Below are positions 2,587 to 61,689 of a stretch of DNA of 64,000 bases, piece after piece. The stretch is from Bacteroidales bacterium (lineage in GTDB: Bacteria > Bacteroidota > Bacteroidia > Bacteroidales > VadinHA17): assembly GCA_036261265.1 (NCBI GenBank), contig DATALC010000074.1, positions 17,393-81,392 of the forward strand, given 5' to 3'. The notes beneath the pieces were generated by a model, which did not search any database, was not told where the DNA came from, and was given only the letters and a program-made list of their open reading frames with translations. Numbering within the stretch: the first letter of the stretch is position 1; each line of letters begins with the position of its first letter. A program made the translations under genes and the position numbers.

Positions 2587-3822
2587 ATGATACGTACAGA
2601 CGATAAGATTATCGATGTCACTGATGATGTTAAATGGATCGGTGTGAAAGATTATGACATCACCACATTTGATATTGTGATGACAACCGAATTCGGTACT
2701 ACTTACAACTCTTATTTTATAAATGCTGAGAAAAAGGCTATTGTTGAGGTTGCAAAGGCAAAGTTCAGCGAAACATATTTTTCAAAGCTTAGAAAGTTGA
2801 CAGATCCGGCAGAGATCAGCTATATTATAGTCGATCATACCGAACCTGATCACGTTGGAAGTCTCGGATTCTTGCTGAAGCTCGCTCCTGAAGCTATTGT
2901 TGTTGGAAGCGGAAATGCTATCAGATATCTTGCCGATATTGTTAATTTCCCATTTAAATCAATTGTAGTGAAGGATGGAGATACACTTGATCTGGGGAAT
3001 AAAACTTTGAAGTTCATTGCTGCACCTAATCTTCACTGGCCCGATTCAATTTACACTTATCTTGCAGAAGATAAGGTTCTTTTCACATGCGATTCCTTCG
3101 GGGCTCACTTCTGTTCCGAAAATATGTTCAGCAAATTTACAGACGATTATTCAGGGGCATTCAAATACTATTTTGATGTTATACTGAGACCTTTCAGTAA
3201 ATTTATGCTGAAGGCAATTGAAAAAATCCGCCCGCTTCAGATTGAGTATATATGCCCGGGTCACGGCCCAATGCACAGGGAGGAGATAAACCCGGCTATT
3301 GAAACATCAAAGAAATATTCAGAAGATTATATCCATTTAACAGATAAATGCAGAAAACGGAACATACTTATATGCTATGTTTCAGCTTATGGATTTACGA
3401 AGAAAGGCGCCGGTATAATAGAATCAGGCATTAAAGAGCATGATGGTATTGAAACAGATGTTATAGATATTGAAAATATTGCGCCAGCTGTGCTCGAATC
3501 AAAAATCATCAGCTCAGATGCTATTATAGTAGGTTCACCAACAATAAATCAGAACACGCTTTTGCCCGTTTATACTCTTTTCGCATTAATAAATCCGATA
3601 AGAGACAGGGGTAAGCTTGCCGGTGCATTTGGTTCGTTTGGCTGGAGCGGTGAAGCTTCAAAGATAATCCTTGAGAACCTGAAGATGCTTAAACTCAATG
3701 TTTTCGAGGATAATGTTCCTTTCAGGTTTTCTCCTGAATCGAGCGAGAAAAAAACCGGATTAAAGGAATATGGAAAAAGATTTGCAGCAAAGTTTCTTGA
3801 AGAAGCAGGTACAGGTAAATAG
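2587..3822 (+). CDS. flavodiiron protein (FprA-type: metallo-beta-lactamase-like domain plus flavodoxin domain)
   Basis: Diiron ligand motif DHTEPDH in the N-terminal beta-lactamase-like fold. C-terminal flavodoxin-like segment (ILICYVSAYGFTKK...GSPTINQN). Confidence 0.8.
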   Translation: MIRTDDKIIDVTDDVKWIGVKDYDITTFDIVMTTEFGTTYNSYFINAEKKAIVEVAKAKFSETYFSKLRKLTDPAEISYIIVDHTEPDHVGSLGFLLKLAPEAIVVGSGNAIRYLADIVNFPFKSIVVKDGDTLDLGNKTLKFIAAPNLHWPDSIYTYLAEDKVLFTCDSFGAHFCSENMFSKFTDDYSGAFKYYFDVILRPFSKFMLKAIEKIRPLQIEYICPGHGPMHREEINPAIETSKKYSEDYIHLTDKCRKRNILICYVSAYGFTKKGAGIIESGIKEHDGIETDVIDIENIAPAVLESKIISSDAIIVGSPTINQNTLLPVYTLFALINPIRDRGKLAGAFGSFGWSGEASKIILENLKMLKLNVFEDNVPFRFSPESSEKKTGLKEYGKRFAAKFLEEAGTGK

Positions 3823-3824
3823 AT

Positions 3825-3857
3825 AAAAAAACCCGGCCATATTGACCGGGTTTTTTT
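3825..3857. terminator. bidirectional intrinsic terminator between convergent fprA-like and hsp20 genes
   Basis: AAAAAAACCCGG-ccatattga-CCGGGTTTTTTT: GC stem (3831-3836 / 3846-3851) flanked by an A-run on one side and a T-run on the other. Confidence 0.7.
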
Positions 3858-3872
3858 CATTCAGGTTATCTC

Positions 3873-4301
3873 TTACGAAATTTTAACTTCCTTTGTTATT
3901 TTCTGTTTGTCTTCAGCCTGTTTCGGGAATGAAACAGTAAGAATTCCATCCTTGCAATTTGCCTGGATATCATCCTTGTTAACGTTTTCAGGAATATAAA
4001 AGCTTCTTGCAAATGAAGAGTAGCTGAACTCTTTCCTTGTATAACCTTCCTGCTTGTCTTCAACTTCATTCTTATGTTCTGAAGAAATTGTAAGAACATC
4101 CTCATCGATGTCGATCTTCAGATCCTTCTTGTCTATCCCGGGAACAGCAAGCTCCAGGAAATAATTCTTTTCATCTTCCCTTATATTCACAGCGGGCATG
4201 TGTGTATTCATTCTGCCTGCCGGAACAGATGAGAAGAAATCATCGTCAAACAAACTTGGAAAGAACGGTCTGAATGTGCTTCTTGTAATTGATGGTAACA
4301 T
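3873..4301 (-). CDS. Hsp20/alpha-crystallin family small heat-shock protein
   Basis: 142 aa with an alpha-crystallin domain (PAVNIREDEKNYFLELAVPGIDKKDLKIDI...GILTVSFPK). AGGAGG lies 8 nt upstream of the ATG. Confidence 0.9.
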   Translation of the reverse strand: MLPSITRSTFRPFFPSLFDDDFFSSVPAGRMNTHMPAVNIREDEKNYFLELAVPGIDKKDLKIDIDEDVLTISSEHKNEVEDKQEGYTRKEFSYSSFARSFYIPENVNKDDIQANCKDGILTVSFPKQAEDKQKITKEVKIS

Positions 4302-4359
4302 GGCTAAATCCTCCTATTTATTTAAGTTTAACATCTGTTTGTATTTTCAACAATCATTA

Positions 4360-4432
4360 GTCAAACTTTGTTCCAATTCATTTATCAGACAAAATGGCAG
4401 CATTTGTTAATATAGTAACAGACAAAATGACA
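4360..4432 (-). promoter_or_regulatory. candidate heat-shock promoter/operator region upstream of hsp20
   Basis: Minus strand reads TGCTGCCATTTTGTC (4388-4402), identical to a 15-mer upstream of grpE, with a degenerate second copy at 4421-4432. TTGGAACAAAGTTTGAC follows at 4360-4376. Confidence 0.4.
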
Positions 4433-4563
4433 TGTCCTGATTTATTTTTAAATACAATATTTATCCGTCAATTTGTATATTAAATTACTAAACAGCATGT
4501 TACAGTTATAACCTGCCTCACAGTCAGCTTCATTTCTTCATAGGAAATCACGTTTTTTTAAAG

Positions 4564-4571
4564 TAGATTTG
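4564..4571 (+). promoter_or_regulatory. Bacteroidota -7 promoter box (TAnnTTTG)
   Basis: TAGATTTG lies 17 nt upstream of the ATG at 4589. The same 14-mer AGTAGATTTGTATT recurs upstream of the gene at 9683. Confidence 0.5.
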
Positions 4572-4588
4572 TATTTAGAACTAACTGC

Positions 4589-5758
4589 ATGAATACTACC
4601 TTCAGGAACATACTGATATTTGTCGGGAGTGTTTTATTTATATTACTATTCTGGTTTTTCAGGAGTATTGTAGTCTATATACTGATTGCCGGAGTATTGT
4701 CAATAATGGGCCGGCCACTTGTTGAGCTCTTTTGCAGAATAAGGATCAGGAACTGGAGATTTCCAAGGTCACTGGCTGCGCTGTTTACGATTATTTTTAT
4801 CTGGATGCTCATCATCCTGTTCTTTAAAACATTTATTCCGTTAATCAGCCAGCAGATATCATACTTTTCATCGATTGAAAGCGAGAAGCTTGTTGCACTT
4901 ATTGATGACCCGATAAACAAGGTTGAAAACCTGTTCAGGTCACTCAATAAGGATCTCGGTGATCGTCTTTCATTAAAATCATACATAATGGATCAGGTGT
5001 CCAATGTGTTGAGTATTAATGTTATAAGAAATTATATCGGATCTGCAGTCGGAATAATCGGGAATATTGTAATCGCTGCCTTTTCAGTAACTTTTATCTC
5101 GTTCTTTTTTCTGAAGGATAACAGGTTGTTTTTTGAGTCTATCCTTATATGGGTGCCTGACAAATATGTTGAAAATGTGAACCGTGCTCTTAATTCGATA
5201 AAGAGCCTGCTAACAAGATATTTCATAGGGATAGTTATACAGAGCACATGCATAATGATCCTTATAACAATAGGAATGACTATCGTGGGAATAGAGTTTC
5301 AGCAGGCTGTCGTTATGGGCCTGATCCTCGGGATTCTCAATGTTATACCGTATGTAGGACCCTGGCTCGGGTTATTTATTGCAATCATAATGGGGGTTGC
5401 ATCACATATTAATATGGACTTTCATACAGTTGTTGTACCTCTAGTTATAAACATGATAATTGTTGAAGCAATAACTCATACAATTGATAATGTTGTATTC
5501 CAGCCTCTTATTTTTTCAAACAGCGTAAAAGCTCATCCTCTTGAAATATTCATTGTTGTGCTTGCAGCGGGTTTTGCAGCAGGAGTACCGGGTATGATAC
5601 TGGGGATTCCGGCTTATACAGTATTACGTGTGTTCGCCCGCGAGTTTTTCTATAATTTCAAGGTTGTACAAAAAGTTACATCAGGTCTCTCGAATGAAGA
5701 GATCGGCACAAAGTACATACATATCACGGATGAGATGAAGGGATCATCAGAGCAATAA
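4589..5758 (+). CDS. AI-2E family transporter (PerM-like permease)
   Basis: 389 aa with about 8 TM segments. Length and TM layout resemble the UPF0118/AI-2E family. No diagnostic motif confirmed. Confidence 0.7.
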   Translation: MNTTFRNILIFVGSVLFILLFWFFRSIVVYILIAGVLSIMGRPLVELFCRIRIRNWRFPRSLAALFTIIFIWMLIILFFKTFIPLISQQISYFSSIESEKLVALIDDPINKVENLFRSLNKDLGDRLSLKSYIMDQVSNVLSINVIRNYIGSAVGIIGNIVIAAFSVTFISFFFLKDNRLFFESILIWVPDKYVENVNRALNSIKSLLTRYFIGIVIQSTCIMILITIGMTIVGIEFQQAVVMGLILGILNVIPYVGPWLGLFIAIIMGVASHINMDFHTVVVPLVINMIIVEAITHTIDNVVFQPLIFSNSVKAHPLEIFIVVLAAGFAAGVPGMILGIPAYTVLRVFAREFFYNFKVVQKVTSGLSNEEIGTKYIHITDEMKGSSEQ

Positions 5759-23218: not shown

Positions 23219-23220
23219 GG

Positions 23221-23457
23221 CTACAATGCTTTATCCCCTGCGGGGAAATTGAAACATTTTTATTTTCTACAATGCTTGATCCCCTACGGGGAAATTGAAA
23301 ACATTATTTATATTCTACAATGCTTTATCCCCTACGGGGAAATTGAAAACATTTTTATATTCTACAATGCTTTATCCCCTACGGGGAAATTGAAAACATT
23401 ATTTATATTCTACAATGCTTTATCCCCTACGGGGAAATTGAATAGTTTTTTATTTAT
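23221..23457 (+). repeat. tandem array, 5 copies of a 47-48-bp hairpin-containing unit
   Basis: Copies start at 23221, 23267, 23315, 23362 and 23410. Core is CTACAATGCTTTATCCCCTACGGGGAAATTGAAAAC plus an 11-12-nt AT-rich linker. Each unit contains a TCCCC-NNN-GGGGA hairpin. Confidence 0.95.
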
Positions 23458-23458
23458 T

Positions 23459-23519
23459 CATTCATTCATTCAATCATTCATTCAATCAATCATTCATTCA
23501 TTCAATCATTCATTCATTC
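23459..23519. repeat. tetranucleotide microsatellite (CATT/CAAT), 15 units
   Basis: CATTx3 CAAT CATTx2 CAATx2 CATTx3 CAAT CATTx3, read directly. Ends 15 nt before the ABC permease stop codon (23535-23537). Confidence 0.95.
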
Positions 23520-39123: not shown

Positions 39124-40398
39124 ATGATTAATATTCCTGATACAGATAAGAAAAGAATTGTAATTGCCGGGTGCGGTTTCGGTGGTCTTACCCTTGCAAA
39201 AAAGTTAAAGAATTCAGATTACCAGGTTGTAATTATTGATAAGCATAATTACCATCAGTTTCCGCCATTATTTTACCAGGTTGCCTCTGCTGGACTTGAA
39301 CCATCATCAATTTTGTTCCCGCTCAGGAAAATTTTCCAGGATTATAAGGATTACCATATAAGAAAAGCAGAGATAACAGGAGTTGTTCCTGAAAATAGTA
39401 TTATTAACACTACCGCAGGCGAGTTAAGATACGACTATCTTGTTCTTGCACACGGAGCAACAAATTCCTTCTTCGGCTCAGATGAAATGAGACGATGCTC
39501 CAATCCTATGAAAACAATTGCAGAAGCCCTCAATCTCAGGAACACTCTTCTCATGAACTTCGAAAAAGCACTCACATCAAATGATGAGGCGGAACGCGCT
39601 AAGAACCTGAGCATTGTAATAATTGGAGGTGGCCCCTCGGGTGTAGAGATCGCCGGGGCGCTCGCTGAAATGGATAAGTATATACTCCGGAAAGATTATC
39701 CTGATCTTGAAGGGCGTGGTGCAAAGATTTACCTGCTTGAAGGTAACAACAGGCTTCTGAATATGATGTCCGAAAAATCTTCATCAAAAGCACGGCAATT
39801 CCTTGAGAAGCTTGGCGTTAAAGTCTTCACGGATACGCTTGCAAAAGGATGCACTGAAGATAAAGTTTTCCTGGCTGACGGAGAGACATTATCGGCAGGC
39901 ATGATAATATGGACAGCAGGTATTACAGGGAACAGTATCCCCGGTATAAGGGAAGAGTGTTTTCAGAGAAACAACAGGCTGATCACTGATCGACAATGCC
40001 TTGTGAAAGGTTATAGGAATATTTTCGCAATCGGCGACATAGCGTATATGACCGAAGAGAAATACCCCAGGGGGCATCCACAGGTTGCTCCTGTTGCAAT
40101 TCAGCAGGCAAGGTTTCTAGCAGATCATCTTAAAAGGATAAAAACCGGCAAACAAGTTAAGGAATTCAGGTATTTTGATAAGGGTACGATGGCCACAGTA
40201 GGCAGGAATCTGGCAGTTGTTGAACTCCCGTTCATGAGGTTCCAGGGATTTTTCGGATGGCTTGTCTGGATGTTCGTTCACCTGATGAGCATCGTGGGTG
40301 TGAAGAACAGGCTTATGATCTTCATAAACTGGGCATGGAATTATCTTACATACGATCAGTCTACAAGGCTAATCCTCAGGCCCAAAGGTTGTTCCTGA
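39124..40398 (+). CDS. ndh: type II NADH:quinone oxidoreductase (NDH-2)
   Basis: Two dinucleotide-binding motifs (IVIAGCGFGG; IVIIGGGPSGVE) and a C-terminal membrane-anchoring helix. Confidence 0.85.
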   Translation: MINIPDTDKKRIVIAGCGFGGLTLAKKLKNSDYQVVIIDKHNYHQFPPLFYQVASAGLEPSSILFPLRKIFQDYKDYHIRKAEITGVVPENSIINTTAGELRYDYLVLAHGATNSFFGSDEMRRCSNPMKTIAEALNLRNTLLMNFEKALTSNDEAERAKNLSIVIIGGGPSGVEIAGALAEMDKYILRKDYPDLEGRGAKIYLLEGNNRLLNMMSEKSSSKARQFLEKLGVKVFTDTLAKGCTEDKVFLADGETLSAGMIIWTAGITGNSIPGIREECFQRNNRLITDRQCLVKGYRNIFAIGDIAYMTEEKYPRGHPQVAPVAIQQARFLADHLKRIKTGKQVKEFRYFDKGTMATVGRNLAVVELPFMRFQGFFGWLVWMFVHLMSIVGVKNRLMIFINWAWNYLTYDQSTRLILRPKGCS

Positions 40399-40433
40399 AA
40401 AAATTGTTATCTTTATATATAACTTTCAGTGAT

Positions 40434-42407
40434 ATGAGTAAGCCATTTATTTCTTTATCACTCGTGATAGCTTTGTTGAATGCAACACCATTATCTGCCC
40501 AATCCATCACCGAGATTAATGTTAATGCAGGAAAACCAGTGGGTGAGATCCAACCAACTATGTGGGGTGTGTTCTTTGAAGATATAAACTTTGCGGCCGA
40601 TGGAGGATTATATGCCGAGCTGGTGAAAAACAGGTCTTTCGAATTTTCAATTCCCCTGATGGGATGGAAGCAGATAAAAATGAAAGGTGAAGGTCGCGCA
40701 CTTCCTTCATTCTATACACCGGCAAATGAAAGGAATCCTCATTACCTGCGGCTTATCGTTGATGCCGACAGTGGTACGTACGGTATCGAGAACGAAGGCT
40801 TTCGTGGAATGGGTCTCAGGGAAGGAGTAAAATATATATTTTCTTTCAATGCAAAAGTATCTGAAGGTTCGGATCTGAAAATGACTGTGAGGCTCCTCGG
40901 GGAAAAAGGAAAAGCTTTATGGGTGACAGGAGTAGGTGGACTTACAAGTGAATGGCAGCGTCATTCGGCGATACTCACACCTGTTGCTACTGAAACAGAA
41001 GCCACAATGCAGATACTCTTCTCCGGTAAAGGAACGATTGATCTCGACCTGATATCCCTTTTCCCTGAAGATACCTGGAAGAACCGTCCCGGTGGGCTCA
41101 GGCGCGACCTTGTTCAGATGATAGCTGATCTCAAACCCGGGTTCCTCCGTTTTCCCGGTGGGTGCATTGTTGAAGGACGCGACATCACGAACAGGTATCA
41201 GTGGAAATATACTGTCGGACCCGTTCAGGCACGCAAGCTTATTATCAACCGCTGGAACATGGAGATGAAAAACAGGCCGGCTCCTGATTATTTTCAATCT
41301 TACGGGCTTGGATTCTATGAGTATTTCCAGCTTGCTGAAGATATCGGTGCAGAGCCTTTACCTGTACTGAATTGCGGGATGTCGTGCCAGTTCAATGCTG
41401 CAGAGGTAGTTCCTCTTGAAGATATTGATCCTTATATCCAGGATGCTCTCGATCTGATAGAATTTGCGAATGGGGATTCATTATCTGAATGGGGGAGACT
41501 CAGGACTTCCATGGGACACCCGGGGACATTCAATCTGAAATTCATTGCTATCGGGAATGAACAATGGGATGAACAGTATTTCGAGCGATATGCTCTTTTT
41601 GATAAGGTTCTCAGAGAGAGACATCCTGAAATAAAAATTATTTCCGGTTCGGGTCCCTCATCTTCAGGTAAGATGTTCGATTATGCCTGGGAGAGGCTGA
41701 GAACAATGAAACCTGATCTTATCGATGAACATTATTATATGCCTCCCGAATGGTTTTTTGATAACGCGGGAAGATATGACAACTACGATCGCAAAGGGAT
41801 AAAGGTGTTTGCAGGTGAATATGCCGCCCATGGAAAGATGTCTGAAGAACCCGAATCCGGAAACACATTGTACAGCGCTCTTGCTGAAGCTGCATTTATG
41901 ACAGGGCTCGAGAGAAATGCAGAGGTTATCAAAATGGCATCGTATGCCCCCCTTCTTGCACATGTTGATGCGTGGCAGTGGCGACCCGATCTGATCTGGT
42001 TTGATAATCTGAATGTTGCAGGAACACCTAATTACTATGTTCAGAAATTGTTTTCGAATTATAAGGGAACTGATGTTGTTCAGGTAGTATCCGCCGGAAA
42101 GTACCTTGCGGGACAAGATAGTATTTATGCAAGCGCGACAATAGATAAAACCTTAAAAAGGATCTACATCAAGATTGTAAATATTGCAGCATCTGCAAAA
42201 CCTGCCAGGATCAATATTGAAGGTGTATCATTTGGAAAAGAAGCAACATTGATGACACTGAAAGGGAACAAAACCGATTACAATACTGTTGACAACCCTG
42301 AAAATATTATACCTGTGAACGGAACATTATCACTAAAGGGTAAAACACTTAATCTTGAACTCGAACCATTATCTCTGAAGGTCATTTTAATCCCCATGAA
42401 CAAATAA
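40434..42407 (+). CDS. alpha-L-arabinofuranosidase, GH51-like
   Basis: Start at ATG 40434 (MSKPFISLSLVIALLNATPLSAQS signal peptide). LVKNRSFEF N-terminal domain, LRFPGGC, IAIGNEQW (catalytic GNE). The listed start at 40257 overlaps ndh. Confidence 0.8.
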   Translation: MSKPFISLSLVIALLNATPLSAQSITEINVNAGKPVGEIQPTMWGVFFEDINFAADGGLYAELVKNRSFEFSIPLMGWKQIKMKGEGRALPSFYTPANERNPHYLRLIVDADSGTYGIENEGFRGMGLREGVKYIFSFNAKVSEGSDLKMTVRLLGEKGKALWVTGVGGLTSEWQRHSAILTPVATETEATMQILFSGKGTIDLDLISLFPEDTWKNRPGGLRRDLVQMIADLKPGFLRFPGGCIVEGRDITNRYQWKYTVGPVQARKLIINRWNMEMKNRPAPDYFQSYGLGFYEYFQLAEDIGAEPLPVLNCGMSCQFNAAEVVPLEDIDPYIQDALDLIEFANGDSLSEWGRLRTSMGHPGTFNLKFIAIGNEQWDEQYFERYALFDKVLRERHPEIKIISGSGPSSSGKMFDYAWERLRTMKPDLIDEHYYMPPEWFFDNAGRYDNYDRKGIKVFAGEYAAHGKMSEEPESGNTLYSALAEAAFMTGLERNAEVIKMASYAPLLAHVDAWQWRPDLIWFDNLNVAGTPNYYVQKLFSNYKGTDVVQVVSAGKYLAGQDSIYASATIDKTLKRIYIKIVNIAASAKPARINIEGVSFGKEATLMTLKGNKTDYNTVDNPENIIPVNGTLSLKGKTLNLELEPLSLKVILIPMNK

Positions 42408-42420
42408 TATAAAAAATCCG

Positions 42421-42600
42421 CTATCTACAATGCTTAATCCTCTACGAGGATAATAATTGATCTCTCATAAATGTTTGTTATTATCTACAATGCTTAATCC
42501 TCTGCGAGGATAATAATTGATCCCTCATAAATGTTTGTAATTATCTACAATGCTTAATCCTCTGAGAGGATAATAATTGATCTCTCATAAAGAATAATTA
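42421..42600 (+). repeat. tandem array, 3 copies of a 60-bp hairpin-containing unit, related to the 23221 array
   Basis: Exact 60-bp period (42421, 42481, 42541). Unit is TTATCTACAATGCTTAATCCTC-NNN-GAGGATAATAATTGATCTCTCATAAATGTTTGTTA. Shares TCTACAATGCTT plus a hairpin with the first array. Confidence 0.95.
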
Positions 42601-42604
42601 TTAA

Positions 42605-42662
42605 CTCTAGTCACTCTAGTCACTCTAGTCACTCTAGTCACTTTAGTCACTTTAGTCACTCT
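42605..42662. repeat. 9-bp minisatellite (CTCTAGTCA / CTTTAGTCA), 6 copies
   Basis: Read directly. Immediately follows the 60-bp array. Confidence 0.95.
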
Positions 42663-42671
42663 AAAAATAGT

Positions 42672-42679
42672 TACCTTTG
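42672..42679 (+). promoter_or_regulatory. Bacteroidota -7 promoter box (TAnnTTTG)
   Basis: TACCTTTG lies 17 nt upstream of the dedA-like ATG. Confidence 0.5.
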
Positions 42680-42696
42680 CATATTAATTTCTATTT

Positions 42697-43317
42697 ATGG
42701 GTTTTTTCCAGACTTTATTCGATTGGTATATGGCCAATCTGAATTACTTTACAATCGCATTGCTGATGGCAATAGAAAGCACTTTTTTGCCATTACCTTC
42801 TGAAATTGTAATTCCTTTTGCAGCCTGGAAGGCAGCTCAGGGCGAGCTTAATGTCTTTCTTGTTGTTATATTCGGCACAATAGGCGCTCTATGCGGTTCA
42901 CTGATAAATTATACACTTGCATATTATCTTGGACGGCCTCTTGTTTACAGTTTCGCAGAATCGCGCATTGGCAGGTTTTTCCTTTTATCAAGAGAGAAAG
43001 TGCAGCACGCCGAGGATTATTTTATAAGAAATGGAAAAACATCGACTTTTATCGGCCGCCTTGTGCCCGGTGTAAGGCATCTTATCTCAATTCCCGCAGG
43101 TCTTGCGAAAATGAGACTGAAGGATTTTATTTTATTTACTATTGCCGGTGCAGGAATATGGAATATTATCCTTGCCGTTATTGGATTTTTCCTTTATGAA
43201 ATAAAAGATCAGATCTACGCCTATCTCGATGATGTTTTAATAGGAGTAGGTGTCCTTTTTGTAGCATACCTTGTTTACAAAGCCTTAAAAAAAAATAAAA
43301 GCAATACACAGGAGTGA
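42697..43317 (+). CDS. DedA family membrane protein
   Basis: 206 aa with the SNARE-associated/DedA layout (ESTFLPLPSEIVIPFAAW...GRLVPGVRHLISIPAG). Confidence 0.8.
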   Translation: MGFFQTLFDWYMANLNYFTIALLMAIESTFLPLPSEIVIPFAAWKAAQGELNVFLVVIFGTIGALCGSLINYTLAYYLGRPLVYSFAESRIGRFFLLSREKVQHAEDYFIRNGKTSTFIGRLVPGVRHLISIPAGLAKMRLKDFILFTIAGAGIWNIILAVIGFFLYEIKDQIYAYLDDVLIGVGVLFVAYLVYKALKKNKSNTQE

Positions 43318-47970: not shown

Positions 47971-47974
47971 CAGC

Positions 47975-48060
47975 TCAATAATGGGGTGCCTTATAACAAC
48001 GGGCTGAGATCATACCCTTAGAACCTGATCCGGGTAATGCCGGCGTAGGGAGGAAGAGTA
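47975..48060 (+). promoter_or_regulatory. TPP riboswitch (THI element)
   Basis: GGGGTGCC...GGGCTGAGA...ACCCTTAGAACCTGATCCGGGTAATGCCGGCGTAGGGAGG matches the conserved THI-box core (CUGAGA; ACCUGAUCyGGnUAAUnCCnGCGnAGGGA). Confidence 0.9.
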
Positions 48061-48125
48061 TAAAACAAAACAGCATTTTTTCATAAGTCACTCCGGAAGT
48101 TCAACTAGTAAAACGGACTTATGTT

Positions 48126-60311: not shown

Positions 60312-61610
60312 GTGCCCAACTTCAAACAGATAGCTGTGAGATATCTTTTTCTTGTAATATGGTTTCTTATATCATCAGTAACATTTGCACAGCTGACAGC
60401 TCCGGGTAGCAAAACAATCAGTTATACTGTTTATCCTTCAACTCCGGAAGTTAAGGATCCTGTTTTCATCTATTGTAATCCAACAGGATCAGTGACGGGT
60501 GAATTGCAGGCTGTTTTGCCAGGTGGAACAGAAGCGTCGGACTTTAAATGGTTCAGATGGAACAATACTTCACTCTCTTTTAGTGATGTTATAAAAAACG
60601 ATGCAGGCGTAACGACATCATCTGTCAATAATCTCACTGAAGGTGGTTACAGGGTCATAATAAGCGGAAATTATAACGATACGTTGACAGGATGGATCGA
60701 TATTGATCAGCCAAAGGGTAAAGCCAGCCTTATGAACAGAACATGCGATTATGTTGCATTAAATGGCGGAGGCATTGGCGTTGATCCGTTTTATTATTAC
60801 GATATTATTAACGGGAAACCGGTATTGCTTCCGAATAGCGTCAGCTTTATATGGTCTTCAACGCCTGAATCAAGCATCCCTTATCCTGATTTTGAAAAAA
60901 ATCCACAGACTTTTAACCCTCCGCTTCAGGATGTTACATATAATCTCCGTATTTCAGATAACTTCGGATGCGTTAATGAATCTTCATTCCTCTATGAATC
61001 AATTCATGTAAATGCTGAGTTCACATCCGATCCGGTTGAAGGTGAAGCTCCACTTGAGGTTTCATTTACAGACAAATCTGTGAGGGCATCAAAAAAGTAT
61101 ACCTGGGATTTTGGAGAGAAAACACCAGATGGCAAGAACATCACCTGGACAGTAACAAATGATCCCGATTCATTATGGATATTCAAACAGCCTTTCATGC
61201 ACAAATACTATATCCCGGGTGAATATTCAGTAAGCGTGATGATTGAAAGCACCCTTGGATGCACAGACTCATTCAGGCTTGCCCAGAAGATAGTTGTGGA
61301 ACCATCTGATGTTGAAATACCAAATGTTTTTACTCCGGATGGAGATGGAATCAATGACTATTTCAGGCCTTTAACAAAATCACTCAGGTATATTGCAATC
61401 GAAGTATTCAGCAGAAGCGGATTACGGGTTTACAATTTCATCGGACAGGGTGAGGATCTTGCTTCATGGCAGGGCTGGGACGGCAATGTAAATGAATCGT
61501 CTGCCAAAGCCGCACCAGGCGTTTATTTCTACATCATCAGGGCCCAGGGTTGGGATGATGTTAAATATGATTCTAAGGCACAAAGGGGGTATGTTTATCT
61601 TTATAGATAA
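60312..61610 (+). CDS. secreted PKD-domain protein with T9SS type-B (gliding-motility-associated) C-terminal sorting domain
   Basis: Signal peptide. PKD-like FTSDPVEGEAPLEVSFTDKS. C-terminal IPNVFTPDGDGINDYF...YFYII...GYVYLYR. GTG start is uncertain. Confidence 0.75.
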   Translation: MPNFKQIAVRYLFLVIWFLISSVTFAQLTAPGSKTISYTVYPSTPEVKDPVFIYCNPTGSVTGELQAVLPGGTEASDFKWFRWNNTSLSFSDVIKNDAGVTTSSVNNLTEGGYRVIISGNYNDTLTGWIDIDQPKGKASLMNRTCDYVALNGGGIGVDPFYYYDIINGKPVLLPNSVSFIWSSTPESSIPYPDFEKNPQTFNPPLQDVTYNLRISDNFGCVNESSFLYESIHVNAEFTSDPVEGEAPLEVSFTDKSVRASKKYTWDFGEKTPDGKNITWTVTNDPDSLWIFKQPFMHKYYIPGEYSVSVMIESTLGCTDSFRLAQKIVVEPSDVEIPNVFTPDGDGINDYFRPLTKSLRYIAIEVFSRSGLRVYNFIGQGEDLASWQGWDGNVNESSAKAAPGVYFYIIRAQGWDDVKYDSKAQRGYVYLYR

Positions 61611-61617
61611 AGTTCTT

Positions 61618-61689
61618 AAAGTCTGTAAAGTTTATAAAGTCTGTAAAGTTTTTAGAGTCTGTAAAGTTTTTAGAGTCTGTAAAGTTCGA
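61618..61689. repeat. 18-bp tandem repeat, 4 copies (ARAGTCTGTAAAGTTTWT)
   Basis: Read directly between the convergent stops at 61610 and 61701. Confidence 0.9.

Follow-up and report, generated by a model that had tools for sequence, protein, structure and literature searches.

The hairpin repeats at positions 42421-42662 of the window (the whole 64-kb stretch of DNA that was analysed), hereafter locus 2, belong as one cluster to a large family of short, palindromic repeats in the intergenic DNA of uncultured Bacteroidales. This family comprises at least 326 units, counted after ten chance matches in unrelated loci had been dropped, in 137 clusters at 121 loci of approximately 14 Bacteroidales MAGs, and it is apparently undescribed, given that a text search of the open-access literature for its conserved tag returned nothing relevant. 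Its stems vary through compensated changes, and in related genomes its units surround a gene for a Y1 transposase. By analogy with known systems, the family is probably REP/RAYT-like, i.e., hairpin repeats are read as folded single-stranded DNA by a domesticated transposase, with possible side effects at the RNA level.

Two repeat clusters in the window

At locus 2, Tandem Repeats Finder reports an array at 42422-42591 with a period of 60, 2.8 copies, 95% matches and 0 indels. All of its units lie on the plus strand. Unit 1 (42424-42483) is composed of the tag TCTACAATGCTT at 42424-42435, the hairpin ATCCTC-TAC-GAGGAT at 42437-42451 and a 32-nt tail; unit 2 (42484-42543) has its tag at 42484-42495 and its hairpin, with loop TGC, at 42497-42511; and unit 3 (42544-42591) has its tag at 42544-42555 and its hairpin, with loop TGA, at 42557-42571, the tail diverging past 42591. 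On the hairpin (3') side of the array there is a minisatellite (42604-42663, plus strand; period 9, 6.7 copies, 96% matches) built from the 9-mer CTCTAGTCA, for which Tandem Repeats Finder gives the rotation ACTCTAGTC. The left boundary is a GH51-type alpha-L-arabinofuranosidase gene (40257-42407, plus strand), the stop of which is 16 nt from the first 12-mer, and the right boundary is the downstream flank (42672-43317, plus strand), consisting of a TACCTTTG box at 42672-42679 and a DedA/VTT gene at 42697-43317; both lie outside the element. The −7 consensus of Bacteroidetes promoters is TAnnTTTG, and the box upstream of the DedA/VTT gene fits it. The first-pass annotation had described three 60-bp units of exact period, loop triplets TAC, TGC and TGA over a constant stem, a run of 9-mers directly after the hairpin array, and placement between the GH51 stop and the dedA promoter box, and Tandem Repeats Finder, the flanking genes and a reading of the sequence agree with that description in every detail.

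In the nearest relative found in the collections (MFD03899.bin.2.103, contig L221), the GH51 protein is 75% identical and no repeat unit follows the GH51 gene at the orthologous locus. There (L221:5150-5700), the GH51 ortholog is trailed by a different long tandem repeat of approximately 200 bp (..GCAAATTGTTTTCTCGCTAAGACGCTAAGTCGCAAAG..). Two short-read Logan contigs with an identical DedA gene, L219 and L220 (SRR12844103 and SRR12844102), break off at the edge of the array, 62 nt before that gene, and the repeat family appears to break assemblies.

A sister cluster, locus 1 (23220-23453, plus strand), contains five head-to-tail units of 46-48 nt with the hairpin TCCCC-TAC/TGC-GGGGA, and is reported by Tandem Repeats Finder as an array at 23221-23453 with a period of 48 and 4.9 copies. 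It too has a minisatellite on its hairpin side, (ATTC)17 at 23452-23519 (plus strand), which looks like an expansion of the ATTC that ends each unit tail. Locus 1 has on one side the stop of an ABC-2 permease gene and on the other the start codon of a sigma-54 response regulator gene, with its first tag 1 nt from the start codon of the latter (23218, minus strand). Both of these neighbours are on the minus strand, therefore the orientation of the array relative to the neighbouring genes is opposite at the two window loci.

The exact 12-mer TCTACAATGCTT occurs seven times in the window, with one further copy carrying a single mismatch, and all eight copies are on the plus strand and confined to the two loci; by our own arithmetic, approximately 0.008 exact copies would be expected by chance in 128 kb (both strands). 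As had been claimed, the 12-mer and the hairpin position are common to both loci, the hairpin beginning 1 nt past the 12-mer in identical register. The earlier reading of ATCCTC/GAGGAT versus TCCCC/GGGGA as a compensated stem change within one repeat family is likewise borne out, both in the window and far beyond it. Its further argument against simple duplication holds between the loci but fails within a locus, since the units of each window array are plain tandem duplicates, 93-95% identical with the spacer included.

Elsewhere in the window, a third minisatellite at 61608-61687, composed of 4.4 copies of the 18-mer TAAAGTTTTTAAAGTCTG with a 9-mer sub-period, begins at the stop of a plus-strand gene (60312-61610) between convergent genes, and no tag-hairpin unit stands alongside it. 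The sole Rfam match in the window is a TPP riboswitch (RF00059) at 47972-48068 (plus strand; 64.3 bits against a gathering score of 54.3). The GC skew of the window is dominated by gene orientation and is uninformative on the direction of replication.

The repeat unit and its compensated stems

The family unit consists of the tag TACAAT[G/T]CTT, 1 nt, a stem of 5-7 bp of variable sequence with a TAC loop closed by a C-G pair, and a poorly conserved tail of approximately 22 nt (32 nt at locus 2). A first scan, covering one genome per species (185,579 species) with the pattern TCTACAATGCTTNATCC, returned mainly single chance matches, together with approximately 15 loci of Bacteroidales MAGs in which the 12-mer is followed by a hairpin, often in tandem and often with a short-period repeat after it. 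A second scan restricted the stem letters to G or C, complementarity not being demanded, and found at least dozens of contigs per MAG in about a dozen MAGs. UBA4788 and CAZHAI01 hold at least 29 clusters with at least 66 units and at least 23 clusters with at least 63 units, respectively; two clusters are visible in the 64 kb of the window. When the 10-mer TACAAT[G/T]CTT was matched in all fetched DNA with up to one mismatch, its copies were bimodal, having either 0-3 or 5-7 contiguous Watson-Crick pairs in a fixed register.

No true unit was present in a control set of 80 other Bacteroidota loci (585 kb), nor was any unit found in the viral contigs of IMG/VR, and Rfam 15 gave no match to the unit at the gathering threshold and none that was credible at E <= 1-10. 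A metagenome scan for CCCC/CCTC units recovered nine loci, all from a lineage of approximately 50% GC. Locus L050, which comes from the MAG closest to the window, resembles locus 2 in that a CCTC/GAGG unit is followed by a related CACTCTAG repeat. The tag shares an 8-nt identity with the conserved 16S rRNA stretch CTACAATG, which we considered a coincidence. That the two window loci belong to one repeat family, as first proposed, is supported well outside the window.

The folding energies of single units are only modestly better than those of shuffles (z −1.2 to −2.5), thus the evidence for structure is covariation and not energy. Covariation was assessed in 101 exact-10-mer copies from other genomes that matched neither scan pattern (approximately 20 of which are probably chance or truncated copies) along with five window units, the choice being made by the 10-mer alone to avoid circularity. 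Across a 7-pair helix, 77.9% of stem cells pair, compared with 55.2 ± 1.3% in column shuffles (reached by 0 of 500), and with 27-47% when the stem partners are slid by 1-3 columns; the covariation score is 0.529 against 0.176. Double changes at the four pairs adjoining the closing pair number 18, 26, 44 and 31, and the closing pair itself is C-G in 82 of the 106 rows of this unbiased set.

The loop is TAC in 269 of 336 units and the inner 5 bp are perfect in 300 units; G.U pairs are rare. There are 167 distinct stem pairs, including CCCC/GGGG, GGCC, GCGC, GCCC/GGGC, GGTC/GACC, GCTC/GAGC, CCTC/GAGG, CGCC/GGCG and CCGC/GCGG, and the C:G to T:A change seen in the window is therefore one instance of a general pattern. 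The suggestion that the hairpin is under selection, either as RNA or as single-stranded DNA read by a protein, is supported by these copies from beyond the window. Such selection may act on the element through recognition by a transposase and not on a host RNA.

The Y1 gene and the interpretation of the repeats

The first-pass annotation had proposed a search for a co-occurring gene of Y1-transposase/RAYT-like type, and such a gene is present in related genomes. Inspection of the ORFs between two clusters of UBA4070 (contig L171) identified a 163-aa protein matching Pfam Y1_Tnp (E = 7e-20), its gene lying between units and between inverted repeats of 116 nt with 88% complementarity. The inverted repeats of L171 (5992-6107 and 7413-7528) enclose a SPOR-domain gene together with the Y1 gene, and each arm begins with a family unit, an arrangement that resembles the 'TIRYT' of some RAYTs (PMC3733652). 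The Y1 gene lies inside repeats at all 14 gene loci examined, which represent 13 distinct homologues of 56-100% identity.

Among the 185,579 species genomes, close homologues (80-100% identity) are limited to seven loci, one per MAG. Six of these are in MAGs already known from the repeat, the seventh is on a contig binned as Proteobacteria, and all seven are flanked by units, with a reversed unit approximately 800 nt upstream and forward units 25-35 nt past the stop. A large protein collection holds 1,756 homologues, and the seven of these for which contexts were fetched (79, 69, 66, 60, 60, 58 and 56% identity, from genomes of 35-49% GC) sit without exception within arrays of this kind of unit. 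Tag variants follow the lineage of the Y1 protein (TACAAYRCTG, TACAATACCA, TACMATACTT, TACAATACCGTA and TACAATGTTTGA), and across the lineages TACAAT and the C-TAC-G turn are constant. Several Y1 loci share the gene order PBP, PAS kinase, SPOR protein, Y1, Y_Y_Y kinase, which argues for vertical inheritance and against IS-like hopping.

The Y1 proteins are 155-165 aa long and their alignment keeps DH[IV]H, WQ and YI..Q..HH, the signature of TnpA_Y1 subclass 1.2 (PMC6006769). The closest solved structure is ISDra2 TnpA, a weak match (E = 0.06), and the NCBIfam IS200 model gives a score of 50.5 against a cut-off of 55. Searching with the E. coli RayT protein (phmmer --max) yielded no match in 2587 repeat-locus ORFs or in the six-frame ORFs of the window, a crude HUH regular expression matched nothing, and L171 excepted there was no Y1 match in the 2587 ORFs of 131 repeat loci.

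Three further observations concern the Y1 loci. Contig L303 (JAEWNA010000081.1), binned as 'Proteobacteria bacterium OH_PDB_150', carries a Bacteroidales-type Y1 gene (95% identity) together with units, and is probably mis-binned. Just upstream of the Y1 start in different lineages (L309:2960-3000, L311 and L314) there is a conserved stretch, ..TTTTCATAACTTTGAATTGCTGCATTTCTAAAATAAT.., containing a TAACTTTG box that fits the Bacteroidetes −7 consensus. After the Y1 gene or its downstream repeat cluster (L311:3500-3600 and L314:3830-3900) stands the motif GGGGCGTACTGGAATCGAACCAGTGACCTCTTGCCTGTCAAGC, which by appearance resembles the 3' part of a reverse-strand tRNA gene; L311 also has a predicted phage-type integrase gene (3751-4974).

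The Y1 gene was not found in the 64-kb window, thus the putative link between the transposase and the window's organism comes only from homology of the repeat. A structure-defined hairpin beside a sequence-defined single-stranded tag, with an apparently low-copy Y1 gene among its own repeats, fits a system of the REP/RAYT type, in which TnpA_REP processes folded single-stranded REPs and requires both a hairpin and a flanking motif (PMC8266576). By analogy, the Y1 enzyme would bind the hairpin in single-stranded DNA, recognising the bases of the loop and closing pair and, in the stem, the shape, and would use the adjacent tag for cleavage and strand transfer; that it binds, cleaves and mobilises the units is what we infer from the association. 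Only copies with an intact hairpin would go on propagating or being maintained, leaving compensated stem variants. Clusters may then grow locally via head-to-tail duplication of whole units, e.g., the three 60-bp units of locus 2, and a slippage-prone short repeat may expand on the hairpin side. A need to remain a substrate of the Y1 enzyme would thus yield compensated stems, which by themselves are no proof of a function in host RNA. Most copies are in transcribed spacers, therefore they probably form RNA hairpins as well, as a secondary effect.

A role in host RNA is a live rival and one that is not exclusive of the transposase. According to this explanation, which we regard as possible but rather unlikely as the primary account, the units are cis-acting RNA modules in operon spacers, in which a stabilising or processing hairpin comes before an AU-rich tag (AAG[C/A]AUUGUA) that governs cleavage of the mRNA or the initiation of translation of the next gene, and the association with Y1 is incidental or a mere means of spread. 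Its support comes in part from the position of the clusters relative to genes. Predicted ORFs exclude 128 of the 137 clusters, and the uniform-orientation clusters with both neighbours known are distributed (tag side/hairpin side) as start/stop 32, stop/start 11, stop/stop 13 and start/start 2. Hence, between co-directional genes the mRNA runs hairpin-then-tag in 32 clusters against 11 in the reverse order (uncorrected count 33 vs 13, p = 0.0045); locus 2, however, belongs to the minority orientation, and units of opposite orientation are mixed in 34 of 95 multi-unit clusters.

The hairpin side faces a gene end in 56 cases and a gene start in 14 (p = 4e-7), and only 2 of 58 clusters lie between divergent genes. 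REPs show a like trend, being rare between divergent genes and mostly downstream of genes (PMC3733652). Of 48 cases in which a cluster turns its tag side to a gene start, 21 have the start codon no more than 9 nt from the end of the tag, and the N-termini beside the tags are credible, e.g., MSKILVIDDE in the window. On the gene strand, a typical spacer reads stop, heptamer run, [hairpin-AAG(C/A)ATTGTA]n, ATG. In many genomes the end of the tag is 0-7 nt from the start codon and some ATGs overlap its terminal TA (..ATTGTATG), so that the repeat supplies the sequence just upstream of those codons.

In 3-5 MAGs, orthologous genes are preceded at the same position by the element, whose compensated stems differ; this would suit a host RNA, but such retention may be mere inheritance. 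The cleavage preference of RNase E-type enzymes is RN|WUU, and the tag agrees with it. Stems with one mismatch have A.C/C.A, which is G.U on the opposite, mRNA strand, more often than G.T/T.G (16 vs 8), but this wobble bias is not significant. Furthermore, the unit matches no Rfam family and has neither a U-tract nor a Bacteroidetes promoter consensus, and a host RNA module leaves the bracketing of the Y1 gene by units in every lineage unexplained.

A combined possibility, to which we give less credence still, is that a class 1 (IS200-like, subclass 1.2) transposase was domesticated separately from the proteobacterial RAYTs and, in Bacteroidales, builds and maintains head-to-tail hairpin arrays with a 49-nt phase and heptamer tails in operon spacers. 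The host would use these arrays as RNA modules right at start codons, making them a genome-wide device for intercistronic expression instead of junk.

The geometry of the clusters invites comparison with a CRISPR array, i.e., a repeat of approximately 27 nt alternating with unrelated spacers of a fixed length of approximately 22 nt. Clusters contain 1-9 units, 61 of the 95 multi-unit clusters are purely head-to-tail, and of 150 distances between successive same-strand units, 116 fall at 45-53 nt, most often at 49; the spacing of locus 1 (46-48) is typical of this phase and that of locus 2 (60) lies outside it. Apart from a terminal TTC, the spacer is almost devoid of conserved sequence; a second hairpin was sought in it, and folding was no better than in shuffles (p = 0.33). 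Adjacent spacers are <60% identical in 16 of 33 pairs, as a CRISPR-like array would have it, and >=90% identical in 8 of 33; these identities indicate that the window arrays are recent whole-unit duplications and that many arrays elsewhere are old. Simple duplication does not account for a strict 49-nt phase when the spacers are unrelated, which weighs against the REP/RAYT-like reading. Nevertheless, a CRISPR array is effectively refuted and highly improbable, given that stem sequences differ between neighbouring repeats, that each genome has dozens of short clusters and that inverted copies are present. Moreover, the spacers of different loci have a faint pyrimidine-rich consensus in common, ending TTC, those within the window arrays are near-identical, the window flanks are GH51, DedA, ABC transporter and response regulator genes and not cas genes, and the unit itself, searched against IMG/VR, has no viral matches.

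The short-period repeats near the clusters are polar. Of 113 uniform clusters, 48 have a minisatellite (period 4-12, at least three copies) no more than 150 nt from the hairpin side and 6 have one at such a distance from the tag side, thus the layout of hairpin array plus minisatellite that had been noted at both window loci is a shared feature of the family. In 946 kb, 73 of 151 short-period repeats are within 150 nt of a cluster. The commonest are heptamers (GACTGCC-like, AATCGCA-like and TATTGCC-like), their runs being of few sequence types that recur at unrelated loci. Four assemblies compared at one orthologous locus, where the flanks are 90% identical, differ greatly in their heptamer runs and hold 4, 4, 2 and 2 units. 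In one MAG (L163:6850-7400) each unit has its own internal (GACTGCC/TACTGCC)n run of variable length, the heptamer repeat having been duplicated along with the unit and not restricted to the cluster end, and at the opposite extreme to the 49-nt phase, L108:1-240 holds nine almost spacerless units at a period of 29-30 nt.

The possibility that the array is no more than a local minisatellite, or a tandem duplication that happens to contain an inverted repeat, to which the full-length identity of the window units (93-95%, spacer included) might point, is scarcely credible and is refuted by the recurrence of tag and hairpin at hundreds of unrelated sites in many genomes with covarying, compensated stems. 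Specific features also speak against the unit being an intrinsic terminator (on neither strand does a T run come after the hairpin, the sequence there being AA/AT... or ATNAAG...), a promoter (on inspection, neither strand fits the Bacteroidetes TTTG / TAnnTTTG consensus) or an operator.

Comparison with known systems

The REP/RAYT system is the main example of a domesticated transposase that maintains short repeats and is known mostly from Proteobacteria. The family described here is like REP/BIME elements in being short, palindromic and extragenic, with an unpaired, conserved tag next to the stem, in keeping a short stem-loop across copies (5-7 bp stem, 3-nt loop), in having sub-families with compensated stems and clusters that include tandemly reiterated units with their flanking DNA, and in being depleted between divergent genes. 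It is also like the 'REPtrons' of Proteobacteria in that, in related genomes, an apparently low-copy and probably vertically inherited Y1/HUH gene is bracketed by inverted copies of the repeat, with one locus of close homologues per MAG and a conserved SPOR - Y1 - Y_Y_Y kinase synteny.

In other respects the family differs from described REPs, namely in tag, cluster geometry, minisatellite tail and protein subclass. REPs are tagged at one stem end with the tetranucleotide GTAG or CGTC (PMC3733652), whereas the family tag, TACAAT[G/T]CTT, is neither of these, has 10 nt and is separated from the stem by 1 nt; its opposite-strand form is ...ATTGTA(G), lying distal to the hairpin and with a G that is not conserved. 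Known REPs favour inverted dimers, unlike the mainly head-to-tail clusters found here (61/95) with their 49-nt phase, and REPs do not have the polar heptamer minisatellite tail. While RAYTs are of class 2 (Y...NP), the Y1 protein of the family has the class 1 signature Y...Q..HH (PMC6006769), and it is not detected by phmmer with E. coli RayT.

The protein is closest in kind to TnpA_Y1 subclass 1.2, which Quentin et al. 2018 (PMC6006769) describe as low-copy, mostly from Bacteroidetes and Cyanobacteria, and 'REP: no'. The agreement with that subclass extends to DH[IV]H, WQ and YI..Q..HH, a length of ~150-165 aa, apparently low copy number, occurrence in Bacteroidetes and the lack of IS200-type ends; in contrast to the record of no REPs for the subclass, every member examined here is amid dispersed hairpin repeats. 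The same paper mentions, under subclass 2.6/RAYT group 5, Bacteroidetes Y1 genes flanked by 'atypical secondary structures' with copies elsewhere in the genome, much like the recurring unusual hairpins of the family. The proteins of subclass 2.6 differ in having NH[LIV]H and YIH[QN]NP and in being longer (~179 aa).

Transposons of the IS200/IS605 group (IS608, ISDra2) offer a further parallel, since the family would likewise combine a hairpin with a nearby single-stranded cleavage or guide sequence recognised in single-stranded DNA. Unlike these, the gene of the family is not multi-copy and does not travel with the repeats, seven close homologues in seven MAGs standing in place of multiple identical gene-bearing copies, and its dispersed units are of 27-60 nt with a single hairpin.

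In practical terms, the units appear to break short-read assemblies, mark a lineage and, as populations differ in copy number, might be used to mark strains. Not described for REPs are the 10-nt tag, the strict 49-nt phase, the polar heptamer minisatellites and the frequent placement a few nt from start codons. With these, the family would extend the REP/RAYT idea to uncultured Bacteroidales and to the Y1 subclass closest to true IS200 transposases, in which the one survey identified had recorded no repeats, and could represent an intermediate between an insertion sequence and a REPtron.
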